From Terriglobia bacterium (lineage in GTDB: Bacteria > Acidobacteriota > Terriglobia > 20CM-2-55-15): a stretch of DNA of 64,000 bases. Positions within the stretch are counted from its first letter, which is position 1, and every line of letters begins with the position of its first letter. A model generated the notes under the pieces. The model did not search any database. It was not told where the DNA came from and was given only the letters and a program-made list of their open reading frames with translations. The translations under genes were made by a program, and so were the position numbers. The stretch is taken from the NCBI GenBank assembly GCA_963664115.2, contig CAXWPJ010000009.1, positions 544,001-608,000 on the forward strand, read 5' to 3'. Below, piece by piece: positions 18,169 to 49,271 of the stretch.

Positions 18169-19695
18169 TCACGGCCGCTGAGTACCCGGGTTCGGGACCA
18201 CCAGAACATCGGCGGCCGCCGTAATACCAGCCAAGTTGGTGATATAACCCACACCGCGCGCATGAGTGAAGTTGGTCTCGACGAACACGTAGCCGGTGAA
18301 CGAGGCCGCATCGTCAGATTCGGCGGCGGTCAGGATGTCAGCGATCGATACCAAATAGGTATTACCCGAAACCAACACACCGTCGTCGTCCAAACCACTG
18401 CCCACGGTTGGGTCCGCATCAGTCGACCACATAACCATATCCCCACCGCTCGGGAACAGCCAGAACGTCAGCGTTCCGGCTGCCCCACCTGCGCCATCGT
18501 CACCGAAGGGGTCGGCCGTGGTGTTGGAAATGCCCATGATGCTGGCCAGGCCTTCGGTTGACACGAAGGGCATCAGCAGCGTCGTCGTCGCCGGAACGAT
18601 GTCGATGAGATCGATGGCGTCGGTAAAGGTTTCAACATAACGGGGAATGGCGCCGTCGGCTGTGTCGCTTCCGATAACGTCGTCATCCTCATCGAGTGCG
18701 TCGCCATCCGGAGAGAGCGAAACCCGCACCGAGATCGTCGCCGGAGCAAACGGGAGTTCGTCGTCATCAACTACGATCCCGTCACAGCCGACCGTTATAT
18801 CGCTTATAGCAGTCGTTGTTGCCATACCCATCAGTTCGAGAATTTCCCTATCATTATCGACATCAAACGTGACTTCGGCGACATCCGCAAAATCAGCGTC
18901 AGTCAGATTGGTGGTTGCGGTGACGGCTTACAATTAAAAGTCAGACCATCCGGAATACCGATCATCTCGACCACAACGGTAACGCCTTTATCGGTGGCAC
19001 CCGAGAACTGACTTCCATCTTTGAACAGGTCGATGAAGTTCTCGGTAATTGTGAAATCAGCCATATCATCGGCGATCGTACCGTCTGTGAAGAGCCTTGC
19101 TTCATTACCGTCCAATTCATCGAGGCCAGCAACAACGGCCGTGACGACTCGGGCAACGTTCTGGCCTGCCGTGATGAGATAACCACTTCCGGAAGTAACA
19201 GAAATATTGGCATCCAACATTGAGAACCCACTTCCGGCAACGGATACCAGGACATTCTCAAGCGTGAACGTACCCGTGTCACCGTCGACGGCGGCACCGG
19301 TTCCCCCCAACGTAATGACAACAATTCCGCTCTTGTTGTTGACTGAGGCAAAGGTGGGAACGCCCACAGCAGTCCAAAGCCTGTTCATGTCACCAGCGTC
19401 CGCGTCCACGGTAATGTCCTCATCGCCTGAACTATCACCATCGTCATTCGTGTCACCGTCGTTCGTAATGAGGACGCCGCCGAAATCGACCGTTCATCGA
19501 CCCACCTAAGGGAGTAAAGCTCGACTGCGCCTCGCAGATAAAAGTCAGGTCGCCCACCGGCTCGGTGTGCCCGGATAAAGTCGCCCGGCTGACCGGCGAG
19601 CTCGCTACCGAGCACGTGATCTGAGCGTAGGCCGCGTTGGACATCCCCATGATCAGGAACAGCGCCATCAGCGGCACGAACAGTTTGAATCTCAA
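18169..19695 (-). pseudogene. putative major S-layer protein (~508 aa), split by two compensating frameshifts (real or assembly error)
   Basis: Three ORFs join if one base is removed near 19493 and one is added near 18929. Signal peptide (AYA-Q), strong RBS AAAGGAG, near-consensus promoter and strong terminator. Confidence 0.7.
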
Positions 19696-19877
19696 TTGTA
19701 TCCTAGTCTCCTTTAGAAGAAATTTTTGCTCACTGTGTAGTTAACAAATCAGAAAGTTTCTGGTTCAAGACTTCGGTTGCGGTCAAACGTTTTTCACGCC
19801 GGACGGCCAACCGGTCATCCCCGATTGTTAAACCTCTCGTAAAAAGCTCCACCCCAAAACGCGGGCTAACCGTCGAT

Positions 19878-19914
19878 AAGCTAACATTAGTGCAATAACG
19901 TGTCAACACTAATG
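19878..19914 (-). promoter_or_regulatory. sigma70 promoter TTGACA-N17-TAGCTT (extended -10) overlapped by an 8-bp inverted repeat
   Basis: -35 at 19901-19906, -10 at 19878-19883; CATTAGTG-N14-CACTAATG at 19885-19914. Confidence 0.65.
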
Positions 19915-20193
19915 ATTCCAAGAGCTTCCCCGCCTGCAGGCAATTCGGTGAGGCCCTCGTCACCCTCGCGGTTCATTCTGCTAAGGCATTCGACAGGCCA
20001 AAAAGACTCAAAGGCAAATTATAGAGAATAAAGGACCGCGGCTGGATGAGACGGTCATCGATACGCACGTTTGCCTCACGACGGACCGGATCGTGTTTAA
20101 TTTCGACTCATGCGGAGCGCTATCGAGAAATTAGGGACCGAGGAATCCTGTGTGTCCTGATCACTGAGCCGCTTTCTAATCATCGAGCCGTTC

Positions 20194-21207
20194 TTAATTA
20201 GTGAGCCGGACCTCGGCAAACTCAGGGAATACGTTTCGTTCGATGCGGGCGAGGGCAGTCCTTCGTTCGAAGAAACCCGTCGCGGGGTTCAGTCGGTTCG
20301 TGGAGTGATAGACCCTCCGGAGGGAGCGGCGCGTGCCGCTGCCTTCTATTGCATGCCCAACGGCCAAAACAGCTGTCGCATCGCCACGAGCGAATTGAAG
20401 GTAATCCAGTAAGGGGGCGGTATCTGGTAAACCCACCCTCGATGCGAACTCGGCAGAACTTCCGAAAAGGATGCGGGCACGTTCCTCGATGATGCGCTCG
20501 ACCCGCGGCGGGTCCAGACCTGGAACTGCTTCCAGGACCCAGCGCGAGGCGAAGTTGGGATTCACACGGGCACCCACCGGGGAAGTGGTCAAGTATTGGT
20601 CTAAGCGTCCACGAAAAACTCGACCGTCACGGGTTTCCATAAGGCTCGGACGGAGATCCTCGAGCCGTATACCCCGGATCAAGGGAAGATCTGAGATCCC
20701 GGGCTGTCCGTTTCTCGGTGCGTAGCCCGAGCCGAGATAAGCGAGGGCCTCGGCCCCAAGCAAACGGGGCGTTTCGTCTGGATCCGTCCAATCCTGAAAT
20801 GCCTGGGTGAGCCTCTCGCCCTCCCGCGGGTCTCGGGTCCAATTGGAAAAAAAGCTCCGGAGCAAGATCTCTGGAGCCGTCAGGGGATTAATCTTTCCAT
20901 TATCGCCCTCGAAAAACAGGTCCACGGAGCCTTCAGGAAAACCGATCCTGTAGTGGAAGCCTTCATCCATGATTTCAATGGGAAGACCCGCCAGGTCTTC
21001 CTGGGCGCTACCGAGCCCACGGACTTCGAGGTAGGGCGCCATCTCCAATCCTGCCATCGCCAGCCGTTCGGCACCGAGGGCTTCCCGCTCGTTGGCGGCA
21101 ATGCGCGCCTCGACGCCTGCGGCCGCCGTCAAACTCAAAGCAATGGACGAAACGATGATGAGAACCCAAAGGACGGTCAACAGTGCAAAGCCCCGCTCGA
21201 CCCTCAT
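20194..21207 (-). CDS. gspK: type II secretion minor pseudopilin GspK
   Basis: RGFALLTVLW prepilin-like N-terminus lacking E5; GKIN, DWTDPD, VNPNFA..VL.AVPGL motifs; ATGA overlap with gspJ. Confidence 0.92.
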   Translation of the reverse strand: MRVERGFALLTVLWVLIIVSSIALSLTAAAGVEARIAANEREALGAERLAMAGLEMAPYLEVRGLGSAQEDLAGLPIEIMDEGFHYRIGFPEGSVDLFFEGDNGKINPLTAPEILLRSFFSNWTRDPREGERLTQAFQDWTDPDETPRLLGAEALAYLGSGYAPRNGQPGISDLPLIRGIRLEDLRPSLMETRDGRVFRGRLDQYLTTSPVGARVNPNFASRWVLEAVPGLDPPRVERIIEERARILFGSSAEFASRVGLPDTAPLLDYLQFARGDATAVLAVGHAIEGSGTRRSLRRVYHSTNRLNPATGFFERRTALARIERNVFPEFAEVRLTN

Positions 21208-21854
21208 CGAAGCACCAGCCCATCCCAATTCGTTTGGGCGTAATCCAAGGGAAGCAAAATCTGGCGCGGTCGTTCACCTTCGAAACCAATCACGATACGA
21301 ACCGCGGCAGGCAGTTCCCTGCCCTCCTCACCCTGCCAGGCGTCAATCCATTCGGCATCGCGTCCGAGCCTCGGGCGCCGCAGGTAGGCGATATCTAAGG
21401 ACTCCACGCCCGACAAATAAAGTGTGTCATAGGGCTCCATTTCGGCAGAATTATCTGGAGAAAGAACGCGGCGTTCTTCAATGGCGAGACGCGGATCGAC
21501 GGCATCTCTGTCCCAGTAGATCCGAATCCAACGTGGGACAGAGTCCGGCCGTCGGAAACTCTTCGGTGACACAAGGTCGAGGCGGGCTGCGGAACCCACA
21601 AAACCCAATCGCTCGCCGTCTTGGGTTCGGAAGGCGAGAGGCAACGCCGATTGAATCTGATCGCGAAGAACAGCCACACTCGTATTCCGCTCGCGCGATT
21701 GGTCTATGCGCTCATAGCCCGTCGACCACATCGTCAACGAGCTGCCTAGAGCTGAAAACGCGACCGTCACGACGAGACCCAGTATAGAAAACGCAACGAC
21801 GAGTTCGATGAGTGTAAAACCCCTGTCTCGCACTTGATTCTCAGCCGAGGGCAT
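21204..21854 (-). CDS. gspJ: type II secretion pseudopilin GspJ
   Basis: RGFTLIELVV N-terminus; W..W...LPAAVRI C-terminal motif. Confidence 0.88.
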   Translation of the reverse strand: MPSAENQVRDRGFTLIELVVAFSILGLVVTVAFSALGSSLTMWSTGYERIDQSRERNTSVAVLRDQIQSALPLAFRTQDGERLGFVGSAARLDLVSPKSFRRPDSVPRWIRIYWDRDAVDPRLAIEERRVLSPDNSAEMEPYDTLYLSGVESLDIAYLRRPRLGRDAEWIDAWQGEEGRELPAAVRIVIGFEGERPRQILLPLDYAQTNWDGLVLR

Positions 21855-22278
21855 TGAGCTGCTCCGCCAGAGGTCGAGGCTCCTCAGGAGCTGGGGCTAA
21901 GACCCGATAGCTATGGATCGTCCAGGTTCGAACACCCGAGCGGCCGTCCCACTGGAGTTCGAGCGCGATCCGAACGACGGCTAAATTACCGAACCGCGTG
22001 TCGGGAGCGATATAGGGCAGGATTTCAATGCGCCAAGCAACATCGTCATCGGACCTGCCGGATGCGGTATCGCCAATCCGCAGCGTAGGCACAAGGTCGA
22101 TTTGGGCCAGTTTCAGGCGGGCAAAATCCATGCGCCGCTGGGCCCCTTCCGTTTCCACGGTCGTCCGCAATGAAGTCGACATCCCATTCATAACGACTGA
22201 AAAAGATATGGCCAGTATAGCGACGGCAACCATCACCTCCAGAAGAGTGAATCCTCCCTGCGTACTGCCTGTTTTCAA
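21841..22278 (-). CDS. gspI: type II secretion pseudopilin GspI
   Basis: GFTLLEVMVAVAILA; position between H and J. Confidence 0.85.
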   Translation of the reverse strand: MKTGSTQGGFTLLEVMVAVAILAISFSVVMNGMSTSLRTTVETEGAQRRMDFARLKLAQIDLVPTLRIGDTASGRSDDDVAWRIEILPYIAPDTRFGNLAVVRIALELQWDGRSGVRTWTIHSYRVLAPAPEEPRPLAEQLNALG

Positions 22279-22739
22279 CGTTCTCCCTCTACAAAACGGG
22301 CTTCATAGCCGTCAATGACGATCGCTCCGCTTCGCCCGCTGCTGCTGGTCAGATCGAGGCGCTGGGGACCCAGAATGTGGCCGGAACGCGACACGACATA
22401 AACGCCGTCATAAGCTCCGTCCCTGGCCGAACCTGCGGAAACACCGGCCGGTAAAACAATTTCTTCGAGGATTGCTTCCCCACGGTCAAAGACGACCAAG
22501 CGATCCGAGTTGAGAGCGATGAAGTGTTCTTCTTGCGCGAGCCGGGACTGGGCCTGAGCCCTACGGAAGCTATGCTGCAGCTGCCGGCCAAAAGTCCGGA
22601 AGCGCAGGTTATCCACGGTGTTCCCGACAGCGGGCCCGACGAGAGTCATGGCCAGAGCCAACAAGGCCAACACGACCATCAGTTCGATCAATGTAATACC
22701 GCGGGATCGGGGTTTGAAATTCTGTGAGCGGAGACGCAC
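22275..22739 (-). CDS. gspH: type II secretion pseudopilin GspH/FimT-like
   Basis: RGITLIELMVVL; GGAGG RBS before the GTG start. Confidence 0.85.
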   Translation of the reverse strand: MRLRSQNFKPRSRGITLIELMVVLALLALAMTLVGPAVGNTVDNLRFRTFGRQLQHSFRRAQAQSRLAQEEHFIALNSDRLVVFDRGEAILEEIVLPAGVSAGSARDGAYDGVYVVSRSGHILGPQRLDLTSSSGRSGAIVIDGYEARFVEGER

Positions 22740-22759
22740 GGAGATCCTCCTGCTAAGTC

Positions 22760-22785
22760 AAGACGCATCCTCAGCGAAAAAAGAC
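22760..22785 (-). promoter_or_regulatory. putative ECF promoter GTCTTTTT-N11-GCGTCTT upstream of gspH
   Basis: Same motif and spacing as at 39591-39616 and 44833-44858. Confidence 0.7.
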
Positions 22786-22889
22786 GAATTTCAGGGAAGC
22801 GTTTGGGTGCTGAGGCGTTCAAAGCTCGTCCAGCCCGCCAGAAGCGGTACCGGCGGCATCTGACGCCTCCGTTCTACATTTATCTCTTT

Positions 22890-23285
22890 TTATCTTCGGA
22901 TGCGATTAAGCTGCAAGGCAGATTCCGCACGTTCGGCGATGCCACACCCCTCTTGTTCGGGAACGATACGGGACGTCACACCGAGGATTCGCTGCGGATC
23001 CGCGAGGACGATTCGCCATTCGGTATCGAATCGGCACTCCCGCCCGTCCCCGAGCAGGGCGACAAAGTAACCACTCCCTTCGTAGCTGTTGAGTTCAGTC
23101 CACGAAAGATCGACTTCGTATTCTACGAACTGCGCGTGATCGGCGCCGAGACTGACATGAATACCCGTGTCTGTGCGTACAAGCCGGTAGTGTGTGTCCT
23201 TGTCGACGACTTCCCAAAGGCCGGAAGGATTGAAAGTCTGCTGAGTGAATCCAAGGCTTAGAAGTAGTAGCAACGCTTTCATCAT
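22890..23285 (-). CDS. small secreted beta-rich hypothetical protein
   Basis: Short signal peptide, FNPSGLW start and two Cys; TTGACG-N18-TACTAT promoter ends 7 nt before the ATG. Confidence 0.7.
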   Translation of the reverse strand: MMKALLLLLSLGFTQQTFNPSGLWEVVDKDTHYRLVRTDTGIHVSLGADHAQFVEYEVDLSWTELNSYEGSGYFVALLGDGRECRFDTEWRIVLADPQRILGVTSRIVPEQEGCGIAERAESALQLNRIRR

Positions 23286-23419
23286 GTTTCGAATAGTACG
23301 AACAGAGGGCTGAACCCGTCAAGAGGCTTCCGCCACCCGGTATTCAAGCTGGCCTCCTGAACTTTTGAATCGAGGCGTTGACCGCCCAGAAAGAGTTCAA
23401 ATAGACTTGGCCCTGACCG

Positions 23420-24571
23420 ATGAAAAATTCTGACCTCGCCCTCGCCCTCATAGTCTTAGCAATGACGAGTGCTCTCGTCGACACCGCCTACGCGCAAGAC
23501 GCCGCTCCTGCCATAGCGGCGAACGGTTCTCAAGTCACCACACATATAACTCAAATTGTTGACCTTTCATTAACTGTCGAGATCGAGGCGGGAAGCAGTG
23601 TTGGCGAAAATGGCGACTGGTGGCTTGTCGCGGAAACACCCTCCGGCTGGTATAGCTACGACATCCATGACCGGGCATGGAAGCCGGGCTTTTTTGTGAG
23701 CTATCAGGGTCCGTTGATCGATCTGCCTTCTTTTGGGGTGTCGTCTCTGACAGGTCTACCCATCGGGACGTATACGTTCTATTTTGGCGTCGATCTTCTC
23801 ATGAACGGCAGCTTGGATACAGGACGCTTGTTCTACCGCAGTGTGGCGGTCCATGTCGACGATATCTGGCAACCCGCACCGGGCGCCCACTGGCAGTGGC
23901 AGCTGAGCGGCACGATCGACACCTCGTTTGTGACCCAGATGTACGACATTGACCTCTTTGAAGTCGCGCCAGGGGTGATTGACCAGCTCCACGCCGATGG
24001 ACGCGTGGTGATCTGCTATTTCAGCGCCGGCAGTTGGGAAGACTGGCGGCCTGATGCGGCCACGTTTCCCGCCGCCGTACGGGGGGAGCCTCTCGAAGAC
24101 TTTCCTGACGAGACTTGGCTGGACATTCGCCAGCTCGACGGCCTGGGCCCCATCATGAGGGCACGTCTAGATCTGGCTGTGGAGAAGGGCTGCGATGGCG
24201 TGGAACCGGATAACGTGGACGGCTATGTGAACGAGACCGGCTTTGGGCTCACCGCCCAGGATCAGCTCAACTACAACCTCTGGTTGAGCGTCGAAGCACA
24301 CGCCCGGGGGCTGTCTGTTGGCCTGAAAAACGACCTGGACCAGGTCGCTGACCTCGTCCCGTTCTTCGACTGGGCCTTGAACGAACAGTGTTTTCAGTTC
24401 AACGAGTGCGCGTCGTTGCTCCCGTTCGTTGAGGCTGGCAAGGCGGTGTTCGGAGTCGAGTACGAGGGGAACCCAGAGACGTTCTGCCCCGAGGCCAATG
24501 TCCTAGGCTATTCCTGGCTCCAAAAACGTCTGGAGCTGGATGCCTGGAGGTTCGACTGCAGCGACAACTGA
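23420..24571 (+). CDS. endo-alpha-1,4-polygalactosaminidase (GH114) with extra N-terminal domain
   Basis: WQWQL, ICYFSAGSWEDWRPD, GCDGVEPDNVD, GLKNDLDQ and NEQC motifs; signal peptide. Confidence 0.93.
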   Translation: MKNSDLALALIVLAMTSALVDTAYAQDAAPAIAANGSQVTTHITQIVDLSLTVEIEAGSSVGENGDWWLVAETPSGWYSYDIHDRAWKPGFFVSYQGPLIDLPSFGVSSLTGLPIGTYTFYFGVDLLMNGSLDTGRLFYRSVAVHVDDIWQPAPGAHWQWQLSGTIDTSFVTQMYDIDLFEVAPGVIDQLHADGRVVICYFSAGSWEDWRPDAATFPAAVRGEPLEDFPDETWLDIRQLDGLGPIMRARLDLAVEKGCDGVEPDNVDGYVNETGFGLTAQDQLNYNLWLSVEAHARGLSVGLKNDLDQVADLVPFFDWALNEQCFQFNECASLLPFVEAGKAVFGVEYEGNPETFCPEANVLGYSWLQKRLELDAWRFDCSDN

Positions 24572-24651
24572 GGGATCGTCGCTACCATCACTACACGAGC
24601 ATCAAGCAACGGCATAGCGAAAGCCCTCGACATTGATCCTGACATCGATCC

Positions 24652-25914
24652 TCACATCTTTGATTCCGCAGTGAGACGAGAATCGGCCTCTCGAATCAAG
24701 CGATACGCTCTTTCGTATGCGTAAGCCTCCTCCTCGATCGTAGGTATCGCGGCGCCGTTCATGCCGTCACGGAGGGAATCCAGAACGGTCGGATCGTCCA
24801 CAGCCGCTCGCATCAAATCCCTCAGTTGACTCGAATCCCCCATTCTAAAAAGAAATCCGTTCACTCCATCTTCGAGCTTTTCCCCAATCCCACCTACATC
24901 TGCCGCCATGACGGGGACTTGACACGCCAAAGCCTCAGCCAGAGTGAACGGGCAGTTTTCGTACCACAAAGACGGGATAACCACCACGTCAACATTACTA
25001 AGAATCCCAGCTACCTGGTCTTCACCGAATACTCCGCGAAACTCAATTCTCTTGTCTCCGGCGGCCATGGCCATGAGGCTCTCGATATAGGTAGGATCTG
25101 GACCGGAACCGTAAATCTTAAGCGACGCGCTTTCTGCCCTTAAGCCCTGAAACGCCTCTATCAGGATGTGAACACCCTTATGCGGGTTGAGAGATCCCGC
25201 ATAGCAGAAGGTAAGCCCGCGATCGATACCGTTTCGCTGACCGTTCATCTTCAGTTCCTCATACTTGAGTCCATGAGGGATGACCCTGACGTCCAGGTTT
25301 TCAAACTCCCTTCGGAAAAGTTCGGCCAGAAACCGGGAGGGAGACACCACAAGCCCCGCATTCGACAAGATCTGTTCGGTCCTCTCCAGTCGTCGAGCAA
25401 TATGATCCACGGGAAGCTCACTACAGGAACGCGCGCATCGCTCACCTTTCTCCGGTCCTTCACACAAACTATTCTCTGAAGTAATGAGATTGACCTTGGG
25501 GCAGAGCAGAAAATAGTCCGTCAGGGTAACGACATAAGGGATCTGGAGGGTCAAGAGGGCCGAGACAAATTCCGCCTGCCTCATGCAATGGACGATGTGT
25601 GCAACATCGGGCTTTTCCCGCTTGATCAGCTCGCGGGCAAGCCCTCGGAGCGGATCCGGGTCGATCACATGACCGAGATCAGCGGGGGCGTTCTCGTGTC
25701 TGAATGCCAGAACGGGTATCCCTTTGTAAATAAATTCCTTATATAAAACATTCCCGATCTTTCGATCGTAGGAGGAAGCCTCGTAAAAGCTGTAGGTGAA
25801 GACCTTCACCGTGTGCCCGCACTTCTGCATCATGGTGGCCAGGTGCAGGACGACTTTTTCGGTGCCGGTGTAGTGTTCAGGATAGAATTGATGTACGAGA
25901 TAGACGATCTTCAC
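24652..25914 (-). CDS. glycosyltransferase family 4
   Basis: GTEK, TLTDYFLLCP, HKG and PSLWYENCPFTLAEA motifs. Confidence 0.92.
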   Translation of the reverse strand: MKIVYLVHQFYPEHYTGTEKVVLHLATMMQKCGHTVKVFTYSFYEASSYDRKIGNVLYKEFIYKGIPVLAFRHENAPADLGHVIDPDPLRGLARELIKREKPDVAHIVHCMRQAEFVSALLTLQIPYVVTLTDYFLLCPKVNLITSENSLCEGPEKGERCARSCSELPVDHIARRLERTEQILSNAGLVVSPSRFLAELFRREFENLDVRVIPHGLKYEELKMNGQRNGIDRGLTFCYAGSLNPHKGVHILIEAFQGLRAESASLKIYGSGPDPTYIESLMAMAAGDKRIEFRGVFGEDQVAGILSNVDVVVIPSLWYENCPFTLAEALACQVPVMAADVGGIGEKLEDGVNGFLFRMGDSSQLRDLMRAAVDDPTVLDSLRDGMNGAAIPTIEEEAYAYERAYRLIREADSRLTAESKM

Positions 25915-25916
25915 TC

Positions 25917-28961: not shown

Positions 28962-29079
28962 GTTCAACTTCCACAATCATCCACGCGCGGGATCACTGGA
29001 TGCTTAAGTTTTGGGGTATAGCTCTGACTGCTCATAGATAGCTTAGTTCGACTCAAGGTCAGCAGTCCGGGGCGGAAGT

Positions 29080-31083: not shown

Positions 31084-31101
31084 CCATCACAGGCCGACAC
31101 G

Positions 31102-31746: not shown

Positions 31747-31774
31747 TGTTTCTCCTGCTCTAAGTAATCCGCAA

Positions 31775-32692: not shown

Positions 32693-32696
32693 TTTC

Positions 32697-33947: not shown

Positions 33948-33964
33948 TGGATTCCTCCGCGCCA

Positions 33965-34744: not shown

Positions 34745-34878
34745 GGAATGAGGGATGTTGACTCCGCGTGATCGCCGGCAAGCGGCAGGAGCACATTGTA
34801 GAAAGCCGGCGCGTCAGATTACGGATCCCCGTATTCGAGGCCTGGCAGTCCGTGGCGGCTCACATCCGACACAGGAAA

Positions 34879-39590: not shown

Positions 39591-39616
39591 AAGACGCGCC
39601 CCCATAGGAAAAAGAC
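39591..39616 (-). promoter_or_regulatory. putative ECF promoter GTCTTTTT-N11-GCGTCTT upstream of gspL
   Basis: Same motif and spacing as the other two copies; overlaps the gspG stop codon. Confidence 0.7.
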
Positions 39617-40077
39617 TACTGCCAGTTCACAATATCGGCGTTCTCGTCCTCGCCGCCTTCCCCACCGTCAGCGCCCAAAGAAAGTATGTCGAAATCTCCG
39701 TGCTCTCCGGGGTACCTATAAAGATACGGACGGGCCCACGGATCGAGCGGCACATCTCTTCGAAGATACGGCCCGTCCCAATTTCCGAGCCCACCCGGGT
39801 TCAAACGCAAGACACTCAGGCCCTCCGACGCAGTCGGGTACCGCCCAACATCCAGACGGAAGAGATCCAACACACTCTCAAACTCTGCAATCTGGACCCG
39901 GGCCGTGGTCTGCCGGGCTTGATCGACTCTGCTGAACAACCGCGCTCCGACCAAGGTTGCAAACAGCGAAATGATAACCATCACAACGATCAACTCGATC
40001 AGCGTAATCCCTCGCTCAAAAGAGTTTGGAGAGGTGGGGTTTGGGGGCCGACGAGTTCGAGGCCGTCGATTCGCCAT
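39616..40077 (-). CDS. gspG: type II secretion major pseudopilin GspG
   Basis: GITLIELIVV, FRLDVGRYP, W.GPYL, DPW and SLGADG motifs. Confidence 0.96.
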   Translation of the reverse strand: MANRRPRTRRPPNPTSPNSFERGITLIELIVVMVIISLFATLVGARLFSRVDQARQTTARVQIAEFESVLDLFRLDVGRYPTASEGLSVLRLNPGGLGNWDGPYLRRDVPLDPWARPYLYRYPGEHGDFDILSLGADGGEGGEDENADIVNWQ

Positions 40078-41379: not shown

Positions 41380-43068
41380 TCAGACTTCCTGCGTCACTCG
41401 GAGCACTTCGTCCGGGGTTGTCACGCCCGCCAGAACCTTGTTCCAGCCGTCTTCCTTCAATGTGTGCATGCCTGATTTCACGGCACTCGCCCGAAGAACG
41501 TTGGCATCCGGATTGGTCGTAATGACGTCCCGCAATTCCCCACCGACATCGACAAGTTCAAAAATTCCCATCCGGCCTTCATAGCCTGTGTATCCGCAGC
41601 TTTCACATCCGGCACCCCGCTGGATCTCGATTTCGCCGGAGTCGAAAGAAAATCCGGAATCTGCCAAAGCATCTCGAGAAACTGACTCGCTCCTGCGGCA
41701 GTCCTTGCACACGACACGGACCAGGCGCTGAGCTAAAATTCCGATCAATGAGGACGCCAGCAGGTAGTCTTCAACCCCCATGTCGATCAAGCGCGTGATG
41801 GCACTCGGCGCGTCATTGGTATGGAGCGTACTGAAAACCAGATGTCCGGTCAGCGCCGCGCGAATGGCAATCTCCGCCGTCTCCAGATCACGAATCTCTC
41901 CGATCATGATGACGTCAGGGTCCTGCCGCACGATGTGTCGCAATCCCGCGGAAAAGGTCAGGCCAATCTGAGAGTTCACCTGAATCTGGTTGATTCCCTC
42001 CATCTGGTATTCCACTGGATCCTCGATCGTGATGATTTTGCGATCTGGAATGTTGATTCTCTTGAGCGCGCTGTAAAGCGTTGTCGTCTTACCACTACCG
42101 GTCGGACCGGTCACCAGCAAGATGCCGTGAGGCTTGGACGTCATCTCGCATATCTTCGCGTACAGATTTTCCGGAAATCCAATCCGGCGAAGATCGATCA
42201 AGTCCGTGTTCGACTTATCGAGAATCCGCATAACAACGCTTTCGCCGTACATCGTCGGCAGTGTCGACACGCGCAAGTCTATTTCCTTCCCCAGGACTTT
42301 TAGTTTGATACGACCGTCCTGAGGCAATCGGCGCTCTGCAATGTTGAGCTTTGCCATGAGCTTGATGCGCGAAGTGATCGCACCACGCAACTGATTGGGC
42401 GGCGGATCCACGCTATGCAGCACTCCATCGACGCGATAGCGGAGTTGGAGTTCTTTCTCGAAGGGTTCAATGTGGATATCGCTGGCTCGCGATTCCACGG
42501 CTCGAGAGATGATAAGGTTGACCATCCGGATAACAGGGACTTCCGAGGCCAAGTCTTTAAGCTGCTCGACATCGGCCTCGGCCAGAGAATCGCCCAGGGT
42601 TTCGATGAGACGTTCCTCTTCCGGGTCTCCACGATGGAGCCTGTCTAGCTGATCCGTTATCTCACTTTCAGATGACAGATAGATCTTGAGATTGTGACCC
42701 GTGCGCGACTGAATCGCGGCGCAGGTCTCCGAATCGAAGGGATCCGTCATCACAATGGATAACACGCCGGATTCCAGGTGAACGGGCACAACGGAAGACG
42801 CTCGAAGGAAGCGATAGGGCAAGTGGTCTATTTCGATCGGAACCGCTGGGTAATCTCCAGCGAACAAGTCGACACCGCTCTGCTCACTCAATGTGGATAG
42901 AACGTCCCTTTCCGACACAAAGCCAAGATCAACCAATATCTTCCCGATACGATCGCTGCTTCGCGTCTGGAGGGACAGCGCACTGGAAAGGTCTTCTTCT
43001 GAAATCAAGCCCCGATCTCGCAGCAAGTCTCCGAAACGCCGATGCTCCAAGGCAAGTAGTGCTTTCAA
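41380..43068 (-). CDS. gspE: type II secretion ATPase GspE
   Basis: ASDIHIEP, GPTGSGKTTTLY, RQDPD, TGHLVFSTLHTN and a Cys4 motif. Confidence 0.97.
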   Translation of the reverse strand: MKALLALEHRRFGDLLRDRGLISEEDLSSALSLQTRSSDRIGKILVDLGFVSERDVLSTLSEQSGVDLFAGDYPAVPIEIDHLPYRFLRASSVVPVHLESGVLSIVMTDPFDSETCAAIQSRTGHNLKIYLSSESEITDQLDRLHRGDPEEERLIETLGDSLAEADVEQLKDLASEVPVIRMVNLIISRAVESRASDIHIEPFEKELQLRYRVDGVLHSVDPPPNQLRGAITSRIKLMAKLNIAERRLPQDGRIKLKVLGKEIDLRVSTLPTMYGESVVMRILDKSNTDLIDLRRIGFPENLYAKICEMTSKPHGILLVTGPTGSGKTTTLYSALKRINIPDRKIITIEDPVEYQMEGINQIQVNSQIGLTFSAGLRHIVRQDPDVIMIGEIRDLETAEIAIRAALTGHLVFSTLHTNDAPSAITRLIDMGVEDYLLASSLIGILAQRLVRVVCKDCRRSESVSRDALADSGFSFDSGEIEIQRGAGCESCGYTGYEGRMGIFELVDVGGELRDVITTNPDANVLRASAVKSGMHTLKEDGWNKVLAGVTTPDEVLRVTQEV

Positions 43069-43071: not shown

Positions 43072-43602
43072 TCAGTATTCCCGCATCACAACGCGATCAG
43101 CGAATGCCGTCTTAGAAATCGCAGCCGATTGCAGATCCGCAGCGTCTTGTTTCGTTACCGACGCGACGATTTGAGTGGGCAGATCCGGCAAGTCCGCTGG
43201 ATTCGTGTTCAGCATATAGATGACAACGGCAACCCTTTCATCCGAAGGCATGCTTCTGATCCCGGGCACGTACTCTCCGAGCAAGTCCACTGTGGCTTCC
43301 TTGAGCGCTAGACGGCGCTCATTGCTGGAGCGGCGAATTTCTTCCGGTGACCGCATCCCTGTGAAAGGGTTCCGGGGTAGCGCTAACGCCACCTCGATAG
43401 TCACAACCAGACCGTAGCCCTCCAGATACGTTGATTTCGCCCTCTGCAACATTGGTCCGGGTACGATGCCCGCAACGCGTTCGTCAATCGCAGCCGTGAT
43501 AGCGGCTCTCTCCTCGACTGATGGGCCGACTTGGCCAAGCAGCGCGGCGGGAAGGAATGCGGCAAAGAAGAAAATCGTTAAGAACAAGTGGGAACGGAAC
43601 AT
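43072..43602 (-). CDS. secreted hypothetical protein in the ECF-T2SS operon
   Basis: Signal peptide; YLEGYGLV motif; tightly packed between the anti-sigma gene and gspE. Confidence 0.75.
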   Translation of the reverse strand: MFRSHLFLTIFFFAAFLPAALLGQVGPSVEERAAITAAIDERVAGIVPGPMLQRAKSTYLEGYGLVVTIEVALALPRNPFTGMRSPEEIRRSSNERRLALKEATVDLLGEYVPGIRSMPSDERVAVVIYMLNTNPADLPDLPTQIVASVTKQDAADLQSAAISKTAFADRVVMREY

Positions 43603-43603
43603 G

Positions 43604-44260
43604 CTACTCCCTCCCGGTCTGGGCGGCGAGAAGTTGAATTGAAGACGCGTTTTCGTAGGCGACTCTCCGCGCCGAACGTTGCAATTCAGAAAAATACTGA
43701 AGTTCCGCACGCAACCTTTGGATCTCTTGATTACCTGCGACCTCAAGCTTCAAAACGGCCTGATCGATTTCCGCCCGAAGCCATCCTTCTTCTTCCTCGC
43801 GGATGCGGTCCACGATCTGAGCGTAATCCAGGCTTGCGTAATCGATGGTTGGAGATACAGAAACCTCGGCAAGAACAGCTTGGAGTTCAGCCGTCTGTGT
43901 GGGCTCGCTCACAGGACCCAGACCAATCACAAAACCGGAATCAAGCCGTTCGAAACGCAGGGGGCCACCCAGCACGACTGCCAGTACGAGCGCCACGGCA
44001 ATGGCGGAAGGAATTGCCCATCGTAATGGAGCCCAGTTCGTTTTCGCTCGGGTTTCCGATGGAAGGAAAACCATTCGCCGTGGAACGTCCACATCGGGCA
44101 ACTGCTCAAGCGAGTGTTGAACCTTTCGAAATCCGGCCACGCGTCCCTGGCACTCCAAACACTGAGCCACATGTTGACGGGCCGCTTCCATTTCCGGCCC
44201 CGTCAAATCTTCAAACACAAACTCCGCAAGCTGGTCTTCTAAATGCGACATTTGAATCAC
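43604..44260 (-). CDS. zinc-finger (ZAS) anti-sigma factor
   Basis: HVAQCLEC (HxxxCxxC) followed by a TM helix; start overlaps the sigma stop. Confidence 0.88.
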   Translation of the reverse strand: MIQMSHLEDQLAEFVFEDLTGPEMEAARQHVAQCLECQGRVAGFRKVQHSLEQLPDVDVPRRMVFLPSETRAKTNWAPLRWAIPSAIAVALVLAVVLGGPLRFERLDSGFVIGLGPVSEPTQTAELQAVLAEVSVSPTIDYASLDYAQIVDRIREEEEGWLRAEIDQAVLKLEVAGNQEIQRLRAELQYFSELQRSARRVAYENASSIQLLAAQTGRE

Positions 44261-44811
44261 CTATTTGCTTTCCCTCGATCGATCACTTGTTCACCTAAAA
44301 CTGATTTCAGCTTGTCGAAACTCATGTAGAGCCTCGACTTCACGGTCGAAACCGGCGCATCCTGAACAGCCGCTATTTCATCAAACCTGAGGCCCTGGTA
44401 GACCTTCAGGACCACGACTTCTTTCTGATCGTCAGGCAGCTGGGAGAGGGCCTTCTCCACAGCCAGCCGATTCTCGATCGGCATGCGGGATGCCCCCACA
44501 TTCGGGTCCAACTCAACAAAGGTCTTCCCCTGGTCCTTCCGGAATCTCGAATAACACACGTTGTGGGCGATCCGGTACAGCCAGGACGAAAAACGGTCCC
44601 GGTCCTTCAGGTTTCCGAGTTCGCGATAGGCCTTCAGAAAACTCTCCTGACATAAGTCCAGAGCGTCGTCCCGATTGCCAACCATCCGATAGATATAGTT
44701 GTAGATCGGCTTCTCCCACTGCCACACTAGGAGGTTGAAAGCGTTGGTATCGCCGTCGAGGACTCGATCGATGATCCGCGAATCGTCGGCACTCTCTAAA
44801 TTCAAAGCCAA
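44257..44811 (-). CDS. ECF RNA polymerase sigma factor
   Basis: DALDLCQESFLKAY, FSSWLYRIA.N and EIA..STVKSRL motifs. Confidence 0.95.
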   Translation of the reverse strand: MALNLESADDSRIIDRVLDGDTNAFNLLVWQWEKPIYNYIYRMVGNRDDALDLCQESFLKAYRELGNLKDRDRFSSWLYRIAHNVCYSRFRKDQGKTFVELDPNVGASRMPIENRLAVEKALSQLPDDQKEVVVLKVYQGLRFDEIAAVQDAPVSTVKSRLYMSFDKLKSVLGEQVIDRGKANR

Positions 44812-44832
44812 ACTCGGGCCTCACACTCTAAA

Positions 44833-44960: not shown

Positions 44961-47285
44961 TTAAAGACGAATTCCGAAGTCTTCGCGGTCGCGCGTCAGA
45001 TTGGGGTTGTAGTAGGGATCCTCAAGCAAGGCATTTCCCCAACGCGTTTTCATAAAAGCCACTGCCTCCGCATCCGGAATGTCCCGAGAGGCCGCCTCGT
45101 GCTGATACAACTGGGCATGCGGCGTCCAGACGATACGAAACCCCTGCCCCCTGACACGAAGACAAAAATCCAGATCGTCAAAGCGTTCAGGAACTGCTTC
45201 GTCGAAACCACCGACCCGGTCAAACACATCGCGCCGTACCATCATGCAGGAGCCGGCAACGGCCGAACAGTTGCGGACGTCGGTGACCCACCCGAAGTGG
45301 TAGCCCGTGTCGGCGGGAAACCCCCTCAAGGTATCTCCGGCAAGAGCGTCCGCGCCAAGTCCGACGATAGTCCCCGCATGCCGTATCCTTCCAGCCGTTG
45401 ACAGGAGCTTCGCACCGACCACACCAATCTCGGGCTGCTTCGAGAACTCAAGCATGGCTTCCAGCCACGCAGGGGTGATCACCTCTATACTCGAGTCCAC
45501 GAAGAGGAGATAGGGACTATCGGTTGCCCGCGCGGCCAGGTTCTTCAGTCGTGACGGAACCGTCCCCAACGGTGAACGCAACACGCGCTCGCTACAGTTG
45601 GCAAGATACGACCGGGTCTCGGCTGTTCCGCCTTCGTGCGACGAGATCACGATCTCATGACTTGAATGTGTCGTCCGTCTCCCGACACTCTCAACACATC
45701 TCCTCACACCACTCGACCGATGTCCGGTAGAAACGACAACGGAAACCGAAGACCTGGGATCGACGTCGTGCCGCACCCTGTAGTGCCCCGGCCCGTAGCC
45801 ATCCAACAACTCACCTTTCATGTCCCGCCGTTTGAGCTGGTCAGCCAACGCTTTCTTCGCGGCCGTGTACGCGTAGAGCTTCGCGCCTGTCGAACCGGCC
45901 GCGGAACCGGCGGCTTTACGCCAGTGATAGAGAATCTTCGGTATGTGAAAGACGTTTCCTGTCCCCTCGGCGACACGGAGCATCAGATCATAGTCCTGAC
46001 TTCCGTCACAAGCGCTTCGAAAACCTCCGATCTTGTCGATCAACTCTTTCCGATAGACGCTGAAGTGGCATGTGTACATGCACGAAAGCAAGTACTCCGG
46101 TGACCAGTCGGGCTTAAAGAAGGGTTCGCTACGGAGGCCTTCAGACTCCAGTTTGTCCTCATCGGAATAAATAACGTCCGCCTTCCGGTGACGCTGGAGT
46201 AGCTTGACAACCTCATATAGCGCATCTGGAGCGAGTTCGTCGTCGTGGTCGAGTAAGCCGGCGAATTCACCGGTGGCCATCGCCAAAGCCCGGTTCGAAG
46301 CGTGCGAGGTACCGTGGTTACTTTCCGAAAACACGACTTTGATTCGTCGATCCAGCTGGGAATACTGCCTGAGCATGGACCCGACGTGGCCTTGGGTTGA
46401 GGCGTCGTCGGCCAGACACAGCTCCCAATGCGGATACAACTGGTTGCGCACTGATTCGATGCATTTGCGTAGCCATCGGGGATCGGTATTGTAAACGGGG
46501 GTGATGAGGCTGATCGTCGGGACATAGGAAAAGCTTCTGATGCGTCGGGGTATCTCTCGAAGGTCCTCCGGTTTCAGACCGTGTTTCTCGATCCAGAGTT
46601 GATACACACCTTCTTGCTCGTGAAGTACCAGTTGGCCTTTCATCGCAACGACAAAGACCTGCCGCAAGCCAGACGATCCTAACTTCCGAATATGCGCGAT
46701 CAATCGCGAAACCTGGGGGCCAAGGCTGCGTCTGTTCAGGAGCCGAGGCCTGTTCCAGATTGTCTCAGCCCCCTCACCGCCGCCTTTGGGAGCCAGCACC
46801 CGCAATTCGAGCGTTATCGCACGCCCAGCGTACTCGCCAAGATCAATGGACAGGCTAATCGGTCGAGAGGGCACTCGGCGCACGGACACCGACAGAACAC
46901 CCTGCCAAACCACTCGCGACCTGCCCTCATCAGTCACCGCCACGACAGTTTCCACTGCGTGCTCCTCGGGCTTCCCGATATGGGCGTAAGCTAAACGGGC
47001 TTGGAAACGTGGACGGTCACCGAGGTTCAATTCAAAGCGCAATCGAGCGTCAGGAGGGATGAGTATTCCGTAATCGTCATGAATTTCCGGATTGGCGACG
47101 ACGCGAATAGCTTCGGCGGATCCCGAGCCCCTAGCTTCCTTATCCGCGCCCTCGAATAAATACGTCAGAGGAAGTTGATCGTAGGCAAGACGTTCGTAAA
47201 TCGACGTCCAGACCGCGACGACCGATCGCGCCCACATGTAGAACGATTGGCGTTTCATGTTCGGACGACTTGTCGATCGCCACAA
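44961..47285 (-). CDS. double-GT2 glycosyltransferase with N-terminal beta domain (start uncertain)
   Basis: PVYNT, WELCLADDAS, LLDHDDEL, YSDEDK, GSQDYDL and DDLDFCLR motifs. Confidence 0.92.
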   Translation of the reverse strand: MWRSTSRPNMKRQSFYMWARSVVAVWTSIYERLAYDQLPLTYLFEGADKEARGSGSAEAIRVVANPEIHDDYGILIPPDARLRFELNLGDRPRFQARLAYAHIGKPEEHAVETVVAVTDEGRSRVVWQGVLSVSVRRVPSRPISLSIDLGEYAGRAITLELRVLAPKGGGEGAETIWNRPRLLNRRSLGPQVSRLIAHIRKLGSSGLRQVFVVAMKGQLVLHEQEGVYQLWIEKHGLKPEDLREIPRRIRSFSYVPTISLITPVYNTDPRWLRKCIESVRNQLYPHWELCLADDASTQGHVGSMLRQYSQLDRRIKVVFSESNHGTSHASNRALAMATGEFAGLLDHDDELAPDALYEVVKLLQRHRKADVIYSDEDKLESEGLRSEPFFKPDWSPEYLLSCMYTCHFSVYRKELIDKIGGFRSACDGSQDYDLMLRVAEGTGNVFHIPKILYHWRKAAGSAAGSTGAKLYAYTAAKKALADQLKRRDMKGELLDGYGPGHYRVRHDVDPRSSVSVVVSTGHRSSGVRRCVESVGRRTTHSSHEIVISSHEGGTAETRSYLANCSERVLRSPLGTVPSRLKNLAARATDSPYLLFVDSSIEVITPAWLEAMLEFSKQPEIGVVGAKLLSTAGRIRHAGTIVGLGADALAGDTLRGFPADTGYHFGWVTDVRNCSAVAGSCMMVRRDVFDRVGGFDEAVPERFDDLDFCLRVRGQGFRIVWTPHAQLYQHEAASRDIPDAEAVAFMKTRWGNALLEDPYYNPNLTRDREDFGIRL

Positions 47286-47288
47286 GAC

Positions 47289-48218
47289 TTATTCGACTCG
47301 GCTCCTCGGATCAACATCCAGCCCCATATCGTCAGAAGCCGCAACGCCAACGCTGCGGATGGAAGAACCGTGCTTCTCGAAAAGGTAATCGGCCAAGCCT
47401 CTTTTCCAGTGCCGCATCCGATTGAGACCCAAAGCGTTCAGGCGCGCGTTGTCCAGAACGGAGTACGCGGGGCGGCGGGCCGGTGTCTGGTAGACGCTCC
47501 CGTTGGTCGGTTCCAATTGCACATCCAGACCACTCAACTCAAAGATCGCTCGGGCGAATTCATACCAGGTACAACACCCTTCTGCAGTGCAGTGAAACAG
47601 CCCATATTGATCGGCCTCGAGCAGGAGGGCCACTTGCTCGGCCAGATCGGCCGTCGGCGTGGGCGTCACAAGCTGGTCATCAACAACTCGAATGGCCTCC
47701 CCCGCTTTCGCTTTACGAAGCATGGTTTCCACGAAATTACCACCCTTGCCCGAATTACCTGCCATCCCGTACAGGCCACACGTTCGAATGACGATGTGTT
47801 TATCGCACTCGGAACGGACGCAATATTCCCCAGCCAACTTGGAGTTTGCGTAGACCGAGATCGGGCGAGGTATGGCTTCCTCCGAGTACGGTTCAACGGA
47901 ATCTCCATCGAAAACGTAGTCCGAGCTGATGTGGACGAGCCGTGCCCCGAGTATTTTGGCAAGACAGGCGAGGTGGAAAACTGCAATTGCGTTGACGCCG
48001 AAAGCGTCACCGGGCTCTGATTCACAGAGGTCGACTTTATGAAACGCTGTCGTGTTGATGATCGCGTCAGGGCTCGAAGCGCTTAGGTGTTCCCGGGCGG
48101 CTTCATGATCAGTGACGTCAAAATCGGATCGCGTAAACCCGATGAGATCATGGTCCGATAGCGCACGTTTCAGATCGAACGCGAGCTGGCCGTTCGCTCC
48201 GAGCAAGGCAATCTTCAT
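47289..48218 (-). CDS. rfbD: dTDP-4-dehydrorhamnose reductase
   Basis: GANGQL, HISSDYVFDG, YANSKLAGE, VVDDQ and RPAYSVL motifs. Confidence 0.95.
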   Translation of the reverse strand: MKIALLGANGQLAFDLKRALSDHDLIGFTRSDFDVTDHEAAREHLSASSPDAIINTTAFHKVDLCESEPGDAFGVNAIAVFHLACLAKILGARLVHISSDYVFDGDSVEPYSEEAIPRPISVYANSKLAGEYCVRSECDKHIVIRTCGLYGMAGNSGKGGNFVETMLRKAKAGEAIRVVDDQLVTPTPTADLAEQVALLLEADQYGLFHCTAEGCCTWYEFARAIFELSGLDVQLEPTNGSVYQTPARRPAYSVLDNARLNALGLNRMRHWKRGLADYLFEKHGSSIRSVGVAASDDMGLDVDPRSRVE

Positions 48219-48239
48219 AGCGAAAAGAGAGTGAATCCG

Positions 48240-49271
48240 TTAATCACAGCCGAAAACCGAACCAACTCGACGCAGCGTCTTTTCCATTCGGTCAAGTTGA
48301 GTCATCCACTGGATATTGTAGTAGATGGGATTCATGAAATCATTTTTCGAATGGCTTTCGATTCGGCGGACCATGTCCACGACCGAATCCTTGACGGACG
48401 AACGCGCACGGAAACCCAGGCTGGCCTCGATCTTGTCCGTCGAGACCCGGTAACTGCGCCCCTTCAAGGGCGTGTAGTCGACGTCGATCTCTACGTCCCG
48501 AATGTCTGACAGCGCTTCCTTAACCCAGTGCGCCAGTTCCAGAATCCGGTAGTTCCTGTACGACACATTGAAGGTTTCGCTATGCACCTTATCTTCCGGG
48601 GCCTCAACCCCGCAGATGTGGGCTTCGGCCACATCGAAAACATCAACCAGGGGGCGCCACGTTTCCCCGCCACCGAAAACCGTCAGACGCCCCTTCGATA
48701 AAGCGTCTTTGACAAAGGTATTGACGACAAGGTCGTAGCGCATCCGCGGGCTGTAGCCAAACACCGTACCCTGGCGAAAGATCACGGGACAGAACGACTC
48801 ATCGGCCAGCCGAAGAAGGATTCTCTCTGCATCGTAGTTGGAGACGGCGTAAGCCGCTCGTGGTGAAACTTTCGCTGTTTCATCGACGAGGACGTCGTCA
48901 GCCATCAGGCCACGGTCATAGACAGAGCACGTGGACGCGAAGGTGAATCGGCGCACACCCGCTCTCTTGGAAAGTTTTGCAATCCGTTCAGTCGCGATGG
49001 TGTTGATTTCGTAGTTCGCGCGTGGATTGTATTCCGCAGTCGGGTCGTTCGAGAGCCCCGCAAGATGGATCACCGCATCGATCCCTGAAAAGGCTTCTGC
49101 ATCGATTGAGCGAACGTCGCCTTCGATCACATCTATTCTGTCTCGGAATTCGGATAGAGGGTCTTCACCGAAGAAAAGCTTGTCGAACACCCGAACCGTT
49201 TCGCCCCGCTCCAGCAACTCGCGAACAAGAACGCAGCCGATATATCCCGCACCTCCGGTAACCAGAATCAT
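48240..49271 (-). CDS. NAD-dependent nucleotide-sugar epimerase/dehydratase (extended SDR)
   Basis: TGGAGYIG, HLAGLSNDP, ASTCSVY and SPRMRYDLVVN motifs; the YxxxK motif reads YAVSN. Confidence 0.9.
   Translation of the reverse strand: MILVTGGAGYIGCVLVRELLERGETVRVFDKLFFGEDPLSEFRDRIDVIEGDVRSIDAEAFSGIDAVIHLAGLSNDPTAEYNPRANYEINTIATERIAKLSKRAGVRRFTFASTCSVYDRGLMADDVLVDETAKVSPRAAYAVSNYDAERILLRLADESFCPVIFRQGTVFGYSPRMRYDLVVNTFVKDALSKGRLTVFGGGETWRPLVDVFDVAEAHICGVEAPEDKVHSETFNVSYRNYRILELAHWVKEALSDIRDVEIDVDYTPLKGRSYRVSTDKIEASLGFRARSSVKDSVVDMVRRIESHSKNDFMNPIYYNIQWMTQLDRMEKTLRRVGSVFGCD

Follow-up and report, generated by a model that had tools for sequence, protein, structure and literature searches.

Organization of the locus

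The stretch of DNA analysed in this study, in the following called the window, comprises 64,000 bp of a Terriglobia bacterium (genome G000, assembly GCA_963664115.2; contig C9, positions 544001–608000) and harbors a full set of genes for a type II secretion system (T2SS), a block of glycan genes including the ABC transporter genes wzm and wzt, and a gene for an S-layer-like protein (SLP). The assembly has a size of 4.89 Mb and is 97% complete. Two proteins of the locus have homologs labelled Acidobacteriota. Some sequencing runs holding part of the window are labelled sponge metagenome, and the source organism is suggested to be a sponge-dwelling species, a symbiont. All T2SS genes are located on the minus strand and form two groups, gspE-F-G-L-M-C-D and gspH-I-J-K. 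From the end of gspD to the start of gspH, 12.1 kb are occupied by wzm, wzt, an acyltransferase, an O-methyltransferase, a family 2 glycosyltransferase (GT2), a methyltransferase-GT2 fusion, a GT4, a glycoside hydrolase of family 114 (GH114), and a 131-aa open reading frame (ORF); the foreign part, reaching from gspD to the 131-aa ORF, accounts for 11.6 kb.

A preliminary description of the window had listed both gsp groups, separated by about 12 kb with wzm, wzt, transferases, and GH114, and all genes that it named are present. The GT2, rfbD (rmlD), and epimerase genes that it had placed upstream were found at 44961–49271, and, as it had stated, no prepilin peptidase, WaaL or oligosaccharyltransferase (OTase), or rmlABC family was matched among the 42 window ORFs scanned. 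The SLP gene, said to lie directly after gspK, does follow it, but its start lies 500 bp past gspK, and the assembly breaks it into three pieces. Misassembly as the source of the split gsp cluster was rejected, since contigs of other runs cross both joins (a single contig of run X10 across 18076–33176, a second one across 33155–36400, and a contig of run X1 across 24354–36400).

Among the T2SS genes, gspE (41380–43068) encodes the ATPase with an MshEN domain and matched TIGR02533 with 648 bits, above the cut-off, and gspF (40152–41369) was assigned by PF00482, with a TIGR02120 score of 386 bits below the cut-off of 424. The major pseudopilin gene gspG (39616–40077, start approximate) matched TIGR01710 above the cut-off. 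In the group of gspL (38221–39549), gspM (37637–38224), and a gspC-like gene (36903–37640), TIGR01709 and NF040576 were matched below their cut-offs and PF10741 (T2SSM_b) above it; the gspC-like gene is without family match and was assigned because of its location, a single hydrophobic segment near the N-terminus, and equally placed homologs in relatives. The secretin gene gspD (34879–36900; TIGR02517, 433 bits, above the cut-off) was the only match at E ≤ 1e-30 among the four secretins of the genome. The minor pseudopilin genes gspH, gspI, gspJ, and gspK (20194–22739) were identified by the N_methyl (H, I, J), T2SSJ, and T2SSK domains and by a GspK tree. With GspD and GspE above cut-off, GspF by PF00482, the major and four minor pseudopilins, and C/L/M, the components of a T2SS are thus present, and a prepilin peptidase could be supplied by two A24 genes (PF01478) located elsewhere in the genome. 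Comparison of GspE with plasmids gave no indication of a plasmid copy, the best match being 52%.

The SLP gene (18169–19695, minus strand) encodes a signal peptide, two Ig/cohesin-like domains, and a C-terminal TM1070/ASRT-like domain, and is hypervariable among strains. It is preceded by a 500-bp leader (19696–20193, minus strand), read from the sequence, over which RNA-library contigs at 19728–19990 are a weak hint only, and is directly followed by a perfect G/C hairpin with a T run (18070–18101, minus strand), likely a terminator; this hairpin was read from the sequence and was not among the output of the scanner used. RNA-library contigs also cover the SLP gene itself; as these runs were found using SLP, they cannot rank genes by expression, and missing coverage of other genes carries no information. 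A scan of the window for promoters and terminators gave results at chance level.

The breaks of the gene lie near 19494 and 18908. The extra base at 19493 is absent in three of four runs compared and in all four RNA-library runs and is kept in run X1, and runs X1 and X5 revealed a frame-restoring indel near the second break. Open SLP alleles thus exist, and the broken gene of the assembly may represent a mixed-allele consensus or a real null allele. In the three contigs of runs X4, X5, and X10 that cover SLP, 32–55 substitutions were detected in the gene, compared to 0–3 in most long flanking contigs; strain indels, too, concentrate in SLP, most flanking contigs being near-invariant. The SLP family as a whole comprises 2607 clusters at 50% identity.

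Conservation of the T2SS and SLP genes

Screening of 251 genomes of the class, in which kin are not independent, revealed SLP together with GspK in 106, SLP only in 2, GspK only in 12, and neither in 131, so that SLP is present in 108. In family f4, where distribution is patchy, both genes are confined to the same 9 of 41 genomes, and in f6 to the same single genome of 44. This co-occurrence is the strongest result of our analysis: the conserved unit consists of the T2SS and the SLP. The two are also close neighbours. In 17 of 21 relatives of the same family, no more than about 9 kb separate gspD or gspK from SLP or a fragment of it. Outside the family, 40 SLP loci of 8 other families were selected from 86 positive genomes with preference for long contigs, and in 31 of them gsp genes were found within 10 kb of SLP, usually with gspD directly upstream.

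The preliminary description had proposed a dedicated envelope module and comparison of synteny among related genomes. Its linkage of T2SS and SLP holds, and glycan genes of some kind adjoin the unit in most relatives, whereas the interleaved Wzm/Wzt block is not conserved: none of the 21 relatives examined carries it between gspD and gspH, and in G004, which belongs to the same genus and has the same locus type, gspD lies only about 75 bp from the 131-aa ORF.

Additional T2SS copies, in which the GspD frame measures 642 aa and resembles that of genus g4, were noticed on separate contigs of four genomes (G013 C2, C6, and C9; G021 C10; G026 C7; G001 C37), some beside SLP fragments; bin contamination or a mobile T2SS-SLP unit could account for them. 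In G002 (L042–L043), in which no SLP was found, gspD and gspL are split, due to decay after SLP loss or to assembly errors. In the single-contig genome G007 (L221, G007:C1:4888001-4908000), a truncated gspC match abuts SLP, an apparent secretin loss with SLP kept.

Structure of the SLP and four-repeat proteins

The fold of the SLP was taken from a model of the G013 ortholog, which shares 46% identity with the C-terminal piece of the window protein. The model is all-beta with three beta-sandwich domains (predicted local distance difference test score of 74). Domains 1 and 2 resemble cohesin and adhesin Ig folds, and domain 3 showed the TM1070/ASRT beta-sandwich fold, matching TM1070 (1nc7; Z 11.4, root-mean-square deviation 2.1, 102 aligned residues) and ASRT (2ii7; Z 7.9). 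According to the available published passages, TM1070 and ASRT are tetramers and predicted sugar binders, occurring as dyads or tetrads in secreted proteins (PMC2739507).

Four further proteins of the window each carry four repeats homologous to SLP domain 3 (hhalign probability of 95.9%). One of them (14568–16886, plus strand) is a 772-aa SLP paralog (E 5e-29) that combines the two N-terminal domains of SLP with four copies of the C-terminal type. The others are secreted proteins encoded at 4878–6260 (minus strand), 7088–11044 (plus strand; with M10 protease and TIG domains), and 11244–14444 (plus strand), and these three genes lie beyond the region covered by the preliminary description. In the whole genome, 17 ORF pieces with domain-3-type repeats were detected, seven of them with four. 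The resemblance of domain 3 to tetrameric TM1070 and ASRT and the neighbours carrying four copies suggest a lattice of p4 symmetry, in which the third domains of four SLP chains would join to form a hub and the four-repeat proteins would mimic this hub.

A link to Slr4, the S-layer protein of Pseudoalteromonas tunicata, is weak (Atlas score of 0.89). Its family PF19526 (cut-off 25 bits) was above the cut-off in none of 35 genomes, the best score being 24.6, and gave no match in 44 proteins scanned; matches of 23–25 bits under the cut-off were seen, one of which mapped onto a domain-3-type repeat. Comparison of the N-terminal half of SLP with the repeat profile (hhalign 71%) gave a lead only, two neighbours of SLP matched DUF5719, and a search of named genomes with the C-terminal piece of SLP resulted in 580 pattern matches, none of which was confirmed, so that no cultured carrier emerged.

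Downstream of SLP, the gene hyp373 (16903–18015, minus strand) encodes a conserved secreted accessory protein with a homolog in 27 of the 40 SLP loci outside the family. Its N-terminal domain has homologs among small proteins encoded next to T2SS loci of Proteobacteria (hhalign 96.8%); in two such loci, L142 and L144, gspD is followed by the small protein and by an unannotated secreted protein of about 305 aa. Proteins of the latter kind, found near gspD and the Wzm/Wzt genes in Ottowia and Rhodocyclaceae (L142:2170-6036, L144:1966-5724, L138:14784-17372), with FG-GAP neighbours and, in L142, a peptidyl-prolyl isomerase, are a candidate surface-layer family of Betaproteobacteria. Homology of SLP to these proteins was not supported (hhalign 0.4%). 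In Thermodesulfovibrionales, which belong to another phylum, one locus (L146) unites parts of the same kinds: gsp genes together with wzt and wzm, a TMTC-like gene that is split, and a small hyp373-like protein.

An IS630-like transposase (DDE_3) is encoded twice in the window, at 3815–4900 and 59644–60729, and both copies share their N-terminus. One adjoins the cluster of four-repeat genes, and numerous insertion sequence elements occur in the rest of the genome.

The glycan block and its origin

Apart from GH114, all genes between the two gsp groups are located on the minus strand. The permease gene wzm (33965–34744) was assigned by PF01061 and wzt (32697–33940, start approximate) by PF00005 together with a C-terminal Wzt_C domain (PF14524) and by a tree with proteobacterial Wzt. 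These are followed by an acyltransferase of the lipid-A/PatA family (31775–32692, PF03279), a member of the rhamnosyl O-methyltransferase family (31102–31743; PF04989, NF045824 with 320 bits below the cut-off of 400), a 667-aa GT2 (29080–31083, PF00535), the methyltransferase-GT2 fusion of about 1014 aa (25917–28961, PF13489 and PF00535), and a GT4 (24652–25914, PF00534 and PF13692). The fusion, which we take to have a WbdD/WsaE-type architecture, is by this analogy likely the chain terminator/polymerase. The block thus provides Wzm and a Wzt_C-containing Wzt along with glycosyltransferases and a likely capping enzyme, as characteristic of ABC-transporter-dependent glycan pathways. GH114 (23420–24571, plus strand, PF03537), with an N-terminal hydrophobic segment, had no homolog in the relatives' regions searched and is probably a passenger. 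The 131-aa ORF (22890–23285, minus strand) is conserved, with 54% identity to G004 and homologs in several relatives, and travels with gspH in this locus type.

The Wzt of the window revealed best matches of only 35–39% near full length among 35 genomes of the family and 46% among 400 genomes of the phylum, compared to 51–54% to proteins of Sulfuricella, Rhodocyclaceae, Chromatiaceae, and Deltaproteobacteria, whose loci share the gene order wzm-wzt-acyltransferase-(epimerase)-methyltransferase. A quick tree with 45 rows places the window Wzt among the proteobacterial ones at 97% SH-aLRT. Among the 12 best donor-like loci (L130–L141) reaching past wzt, 11 have the PF03279 acyltransferase 3' of wzt, L140 being the exception, and of the initial 22 outside loci that were screened, 7 hold related cassettes close to gsp genes. 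Based on these identities, the tree grouping, and the absence of the block from relatives, horizontal gain is the simplest reading and likely. Codon usage (glycan block in the 3rd–33rd percentile, gsp genes in the 5th–62nd) fails to separate the two sets of genes and does not flag SLP as highly expressed. Low-depth contigs of run X4 with about 86% identity at 31096–32136 and 33959–34797 point to a related organism with parts of the same glycan block.

Directly upstream of gspE, genes for an extracytoplasmic function (ECF) sigma factor, an anti-sigma factor, and an exported 176-aa ORF (43072–44811, minus strand) separate gspE from the 774-aa double GT2, rmlD, and epimerase group (44961–49271, minus strand). 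The former set is found at the same place in 16 of 21 relatives' regions and may act as a regulator of the envelope locus. The double GT2 of the latter shares 57–67% identity with G002, G003, and G004, and by this comparison the group would be older than the inserted glycan block.

Outside the window, the genome contains rmlA/rmlB-like genes, rmlC, one initiating transferase gene (PF02397), lpxC, and waaA. The search for a ligase or OTase elsewhere, proposed in the preliminary description, led to three Wzy_C proteins, one being a WaaL-like protein of 405 aa. The two others are OTase-like, and their genes belong to a type IV pilus locus (G000:C2:438001-470000; L070, L071) that holds another wzm/wzt pair as well as gmd/fcl-like and wecA-like genes. 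Its combination of a machine with glycan genes parallels that of the window and probably serves pilin glycosylation. G003 has the same pilus locus with a different wzm/wzt pair in opposite orientation (L226).

Locus types and possible cassette exchange

Two types of locus were distinguished. In type A, the order is gspE-F-G-H-I-J-K-L-M-C-D-SLP-hyp373, followed by a 224-aa GT2 and a membrane protein of about 735 aa with tetratricopeptide repeats (TPRs), hereafter called TMTC-like. This protein follows SLP in 14 of 35 family genomes, has a homolog in 8 of the 40 outside-family loci, and does not follow SLP in the window. It consists of a multi-helix membrane domain and TPRs, with D50-D51 invariant in all 12 aligned sequences, and so combines the membrane domain with DD motif and the TPRs expected of a GT-C enzyme. 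PMT_2 matches were obtained for 3 of 14 domains, one above the cut-off, and 14 of 120 listed homologs carry the JGI name protein O-mannosyl-transferase. The linked copies gave no match to PF08409 (TMTC_DUF1736), for which only two other proteins scored in 5 genomes, one of them a 33% paralog; Foldseek of the model gave TPR matches only, and a PDB sequence search with the membrane domain none.

In type B, which includes the window, gspH-K lie away from gspG, and the close TMTC-like subfamily is missing, G013 and G021 having a distant one nearby. All nine type-B GspK rows form one clade, while their genomes are scattered on the rpoB tree (on which G032, a type-B genome, was labelled type A; the type of G001 is ambiguous). 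By rpoB, G000 is sister to G002 (93/87), but its GspD and GspL fall together with those of G004, G013, and G021, and its SLP with those of G004 and G013. The GspK data reject a clade of G000, G002, G003, and G004 (approximately unbiased test, p 1e-35, quick tree). The outgroup L128 was omitted from the GspD and GspL trees, all outgroups from the latter test, and three N-terminal fragments from the SLP tree. SLP, the minor pseudopilins, and the flanking glycan genes behave like a surface cassette that can be swapped, and the conflicts among the trees fit either an exchange of cassettes or old paralogy with differential loss. Since an unrelated wzm/wzt pair sits beside gspH in three other type-B genomes (G024, G032, and G033), the gspH site is a glycan hotspot. 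The GT2-epimerase-GT4-GT4 genes that follow SLP in type-A relatives are kept in G000 at a distance of 390 kb (C9:175001-180400, L074), where they lie near another remnant of a four-repeat-type gene.

Comparison with known systems

The closest layout was found in Aeromonas. In the wb-salmo cluster of A. salmonicida A450 and the wbO11 cluster of A. hydrophila AH-1, as in the window, T2SS, S-layer gene, and Wzm/Wzt are interleaved and accompanied by rml sugars and an acyltransferase. According to the available passages, the sps T2SS and vapA lie inside the Wzm/Wzt O-antigen cluster, wzt mutants lose the O-antigen of the lipopolysaccharide (LPS), vapA mutants keep it, and the A-layer is described as tethered by LPS (PMC4483657, PMC4413209). 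While in Aeromonas the T2SS-vapA unit is inserted in a glycan cluster, the window is the reverse, with a glycan block inserted in the T2SS cluster. Moreover, Aeromonas belongs to a different phylum, the same passages mention neither four-repeat nor TMTC-like genes, and the likeness considered here is one of layout. The interleaved arrangement is thus a mirror image of a published one, local to this lineage, and not surprising in itself.

The gene of Slr4, a Sec-signal protein that forms a p4 lattice, directly follows a T2SS cluster and is conserved in relatives, and SLP is similar in Sec signal, size, and place; apart from that, sequence similarity is sub-threshold, the lattice has been seen for Slr4 whereas SLP is known from genes, and the passages available on Slr4 contain no glycan cluster (PMC7821379). 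For the ASRAH superfamily of ASRT and TM1070, tetrads in secreted proteins are found on both sides; the available text links actinobacterial members to a glycosyltransferase and does not mention Acidobacteria (PMC2739507), in which the domain here ends a candidate S-layer protein and tags about 15 ORF pieces of the genome. TMTC1–4, protein O-mannosyltransferases of the GT-C clan, share the membrane domain plus TPRs with the SLP-linked protein of relatives, differing in PF08409; the prokaryotic homologs are called not well characterised in the part of the source available (PMC7801869).

Joint exchange of S-layer genes with their neighbours is familiar from the S-layer cassettes of Clostridioides difficile, which is Gram-positive, uses SecA2 in place of a T2SS, and shows no homology to this locus. 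As here, its cassettes hold a variable S-layer gene, a secretion component, and optional glycosylation genes, as far as the available text goes (bioRxiv 10.1101/2025.04.02.646754).

Interpretation

The explanation that we favor, at somewhat better than even chances, is that the T2SS exports SLP to form a predicted square S-layer and that the Wzm/Wzt cassette, likely acquired horizontally, makes a capped LPS O-chain tethering or underlying this layer. SLP and the four-repeat proteins, whose hydrophobic N-termini are seen, would enter the periplasm via signal peptides and be moved out by the T2SS, the pseudopilins of which would be matured by a peptidase from elsewhere in the genome. A hub would arise from the C-terminal domains of four SLP molecules, and a single chain carrying four domain copies would occupy hub sites and display enzymes. 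Judging from the genes present, the GT2 and GT4 enzymes would build a rhamnose-containing chain from dTDP-rhamnose. After methyl capping and acylation, Wzm/Wzt would export this chain, and the WaaL-like protein encoded at C2:946996 would ligate it to lipid A-core. The preliminary description had left open whether the glycan decorates or anchors the S-layer. An LPS O-chain is more likely than an S-layer glycan, because LPS genes and a ligase candidate are present, the block contains no transferase to protein, SLP is acidic and poor in serine and threonine (S/T), and Aeromonas provides a precedent. The S/T content of the window SLP is 17.5%, compared to 22.5–31.5% in six SLPs with a linked TMTC-like gene, and the protein resembles five other non-linked SLPs in being acidic and S/T-poor.

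Several observations weigh against this explanation. As to the unit itself, SLP lies 22–35 kb from gspD in G006 and G016 and on other contigs in G022, 9 of the 40 outside-family loci lack a gsp cluster within 10 kb, no SLP was found in G002 (97% complete), which carries the T2SS, G007 carries SLP without a GspD match, and kinship among the genomes counted reduces the weight of the co-occurrence. As to the protein, the window SLP is frameshifted, with the first break retained in run X1, and the label S-layer-like of the preliminary description found support in fold, context, and variability but not in Pfam, NCBIfam, or PDB sequences: a Pfam scan of 44 proteins at E ≤ 0.5 yielded noise and no known S-layer sequence match, PDB sequences gave no match at E ≤ 1 and one further search a single chance match (E 0.64), and Foldseek of the model returned only adhesin and integrin Ig strings with TM-scores of at most 0.33. 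As to the glycan, the non-linked SLPs of G024 and G033 are as S/T-rich as linked ones, composition being confounded with habitat and descent, and the two OTase-like proteins and one distant TMTC-like protein of the genome make a protein acceptor possible.

Geobacillus slg clusters attach their glycan to the S-layer protein and encode the initiating transferase and the OTase with the cluster. Attachment of the Wzm/Wzt glycan to SLP itself, via an OTase-like or GT-C enzyme encoded elsewhere and in place of the TMTC-like pathway of relatives, would agree with the methyltransferase-GT2 fusion and the Wzt_C domain, with WsaF-family genes in donor-like loci, with the distant TMTC-like gene and the two Wzy_C proteins, which are about 650 aa long and one of which bears TPRs, and with candidate protein-glycosylation genes adjoining SLP in relatives. 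We consider it unlikely, since the two OTase-like genes belong to the type IV pilus locus with its own wzm/wzt, the block brought no transferase (neither an initiating transferase nor an OTase is among the 42 window ORFs, the candidates lying on another contig), SLP is S/T-poor and acidic, and the same layout in Aeromonas gives LPS O-antigen. Families PF03279 and PF04989 serve glycolipid pathways as well, and the block could be a capsule or non-LPS glycolipid cassette with its own acyltransferase anchor, sitting in a recombination hotspot with no tie to SLP or T2SS. The foreign Wzt, the absence from 21 relatives' regions, and GH114 on the opposite strand fit such a passenger, which we rate as quite unlikely, as the site repeatedly holds glycan genes, including the unrelated wzm/wzt pairs of G024, G032, and G033, and as related cassettes recur near gsp genes in the outside loci. 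Finally, SLP might be an adhesin or fibre subunit exported by the T2SS without a 2D lattice. Hypervariability fits an adhesin equally well, and over the whole chain, Ig domains of adhesins and pilins are the best structural matches; with mostly one SLP copy per genome across the class, its own leader and hairpin, the tetramer-type C-terminal domain with four-repeat mimics, and the weak links to Slr4, we regard this as improbable.

Beyond the O-chain explanation favored above, a wider scenario seems possible, albeit doubtful. A large class of Acidobacteriota would build an unrecognised p4 S-layer, remotely related to Slr4 and with its own T2SS, in which the ASRAH-like domain serves as lattice hub, as glycan anchor, and as the tag by which a dozen surface enzymes with four repeats are displayed. 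The beta-sandwich domains of SLP would in many lineages be O-glycosylated by a bacterial TMTC-like enzyme together with a polyprenol-phosphate-sugar synthase, the genes of which directly follow SLP. Entire cassettes of SLP, pseudopilin, and glycan genes would be swapped between genera, and in this sponge symbiont the TMTC pathway would have been replaced by the proteobacterial Wzm/Wzt glycan.

An S-layer is reportedly part of the description of Paludibaculum, for which no paper with both terms was found. In the available text of a 2024 survey, S-layers in Acidobacteriota are called ambiguous (bioRxiv 10.1101/2024.05.28.596244). Our literature search, which left most subscription papers outside, found no report of an acidobacterial T2SS-linked S-layer, nor did it turn up the T2SS-SLP unit that recurs across the class, its four-repeat proteins, or its TMTC-like neighbours.

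The locus names a candidate S-layer protein, its exporter, and an accessory protein in one class, and is thus directly accessible to microscopy and proteomics. It also represents a case of T2SS tip pseudopilins travelling with their substrate. In addition, it offers a candidate substrate for the uncharacterised bacterial TMTC-like transferases; if these enzymes do O-glycosylate SLP, this would be the first natural substrate for prokaryotic TMTC homologs.

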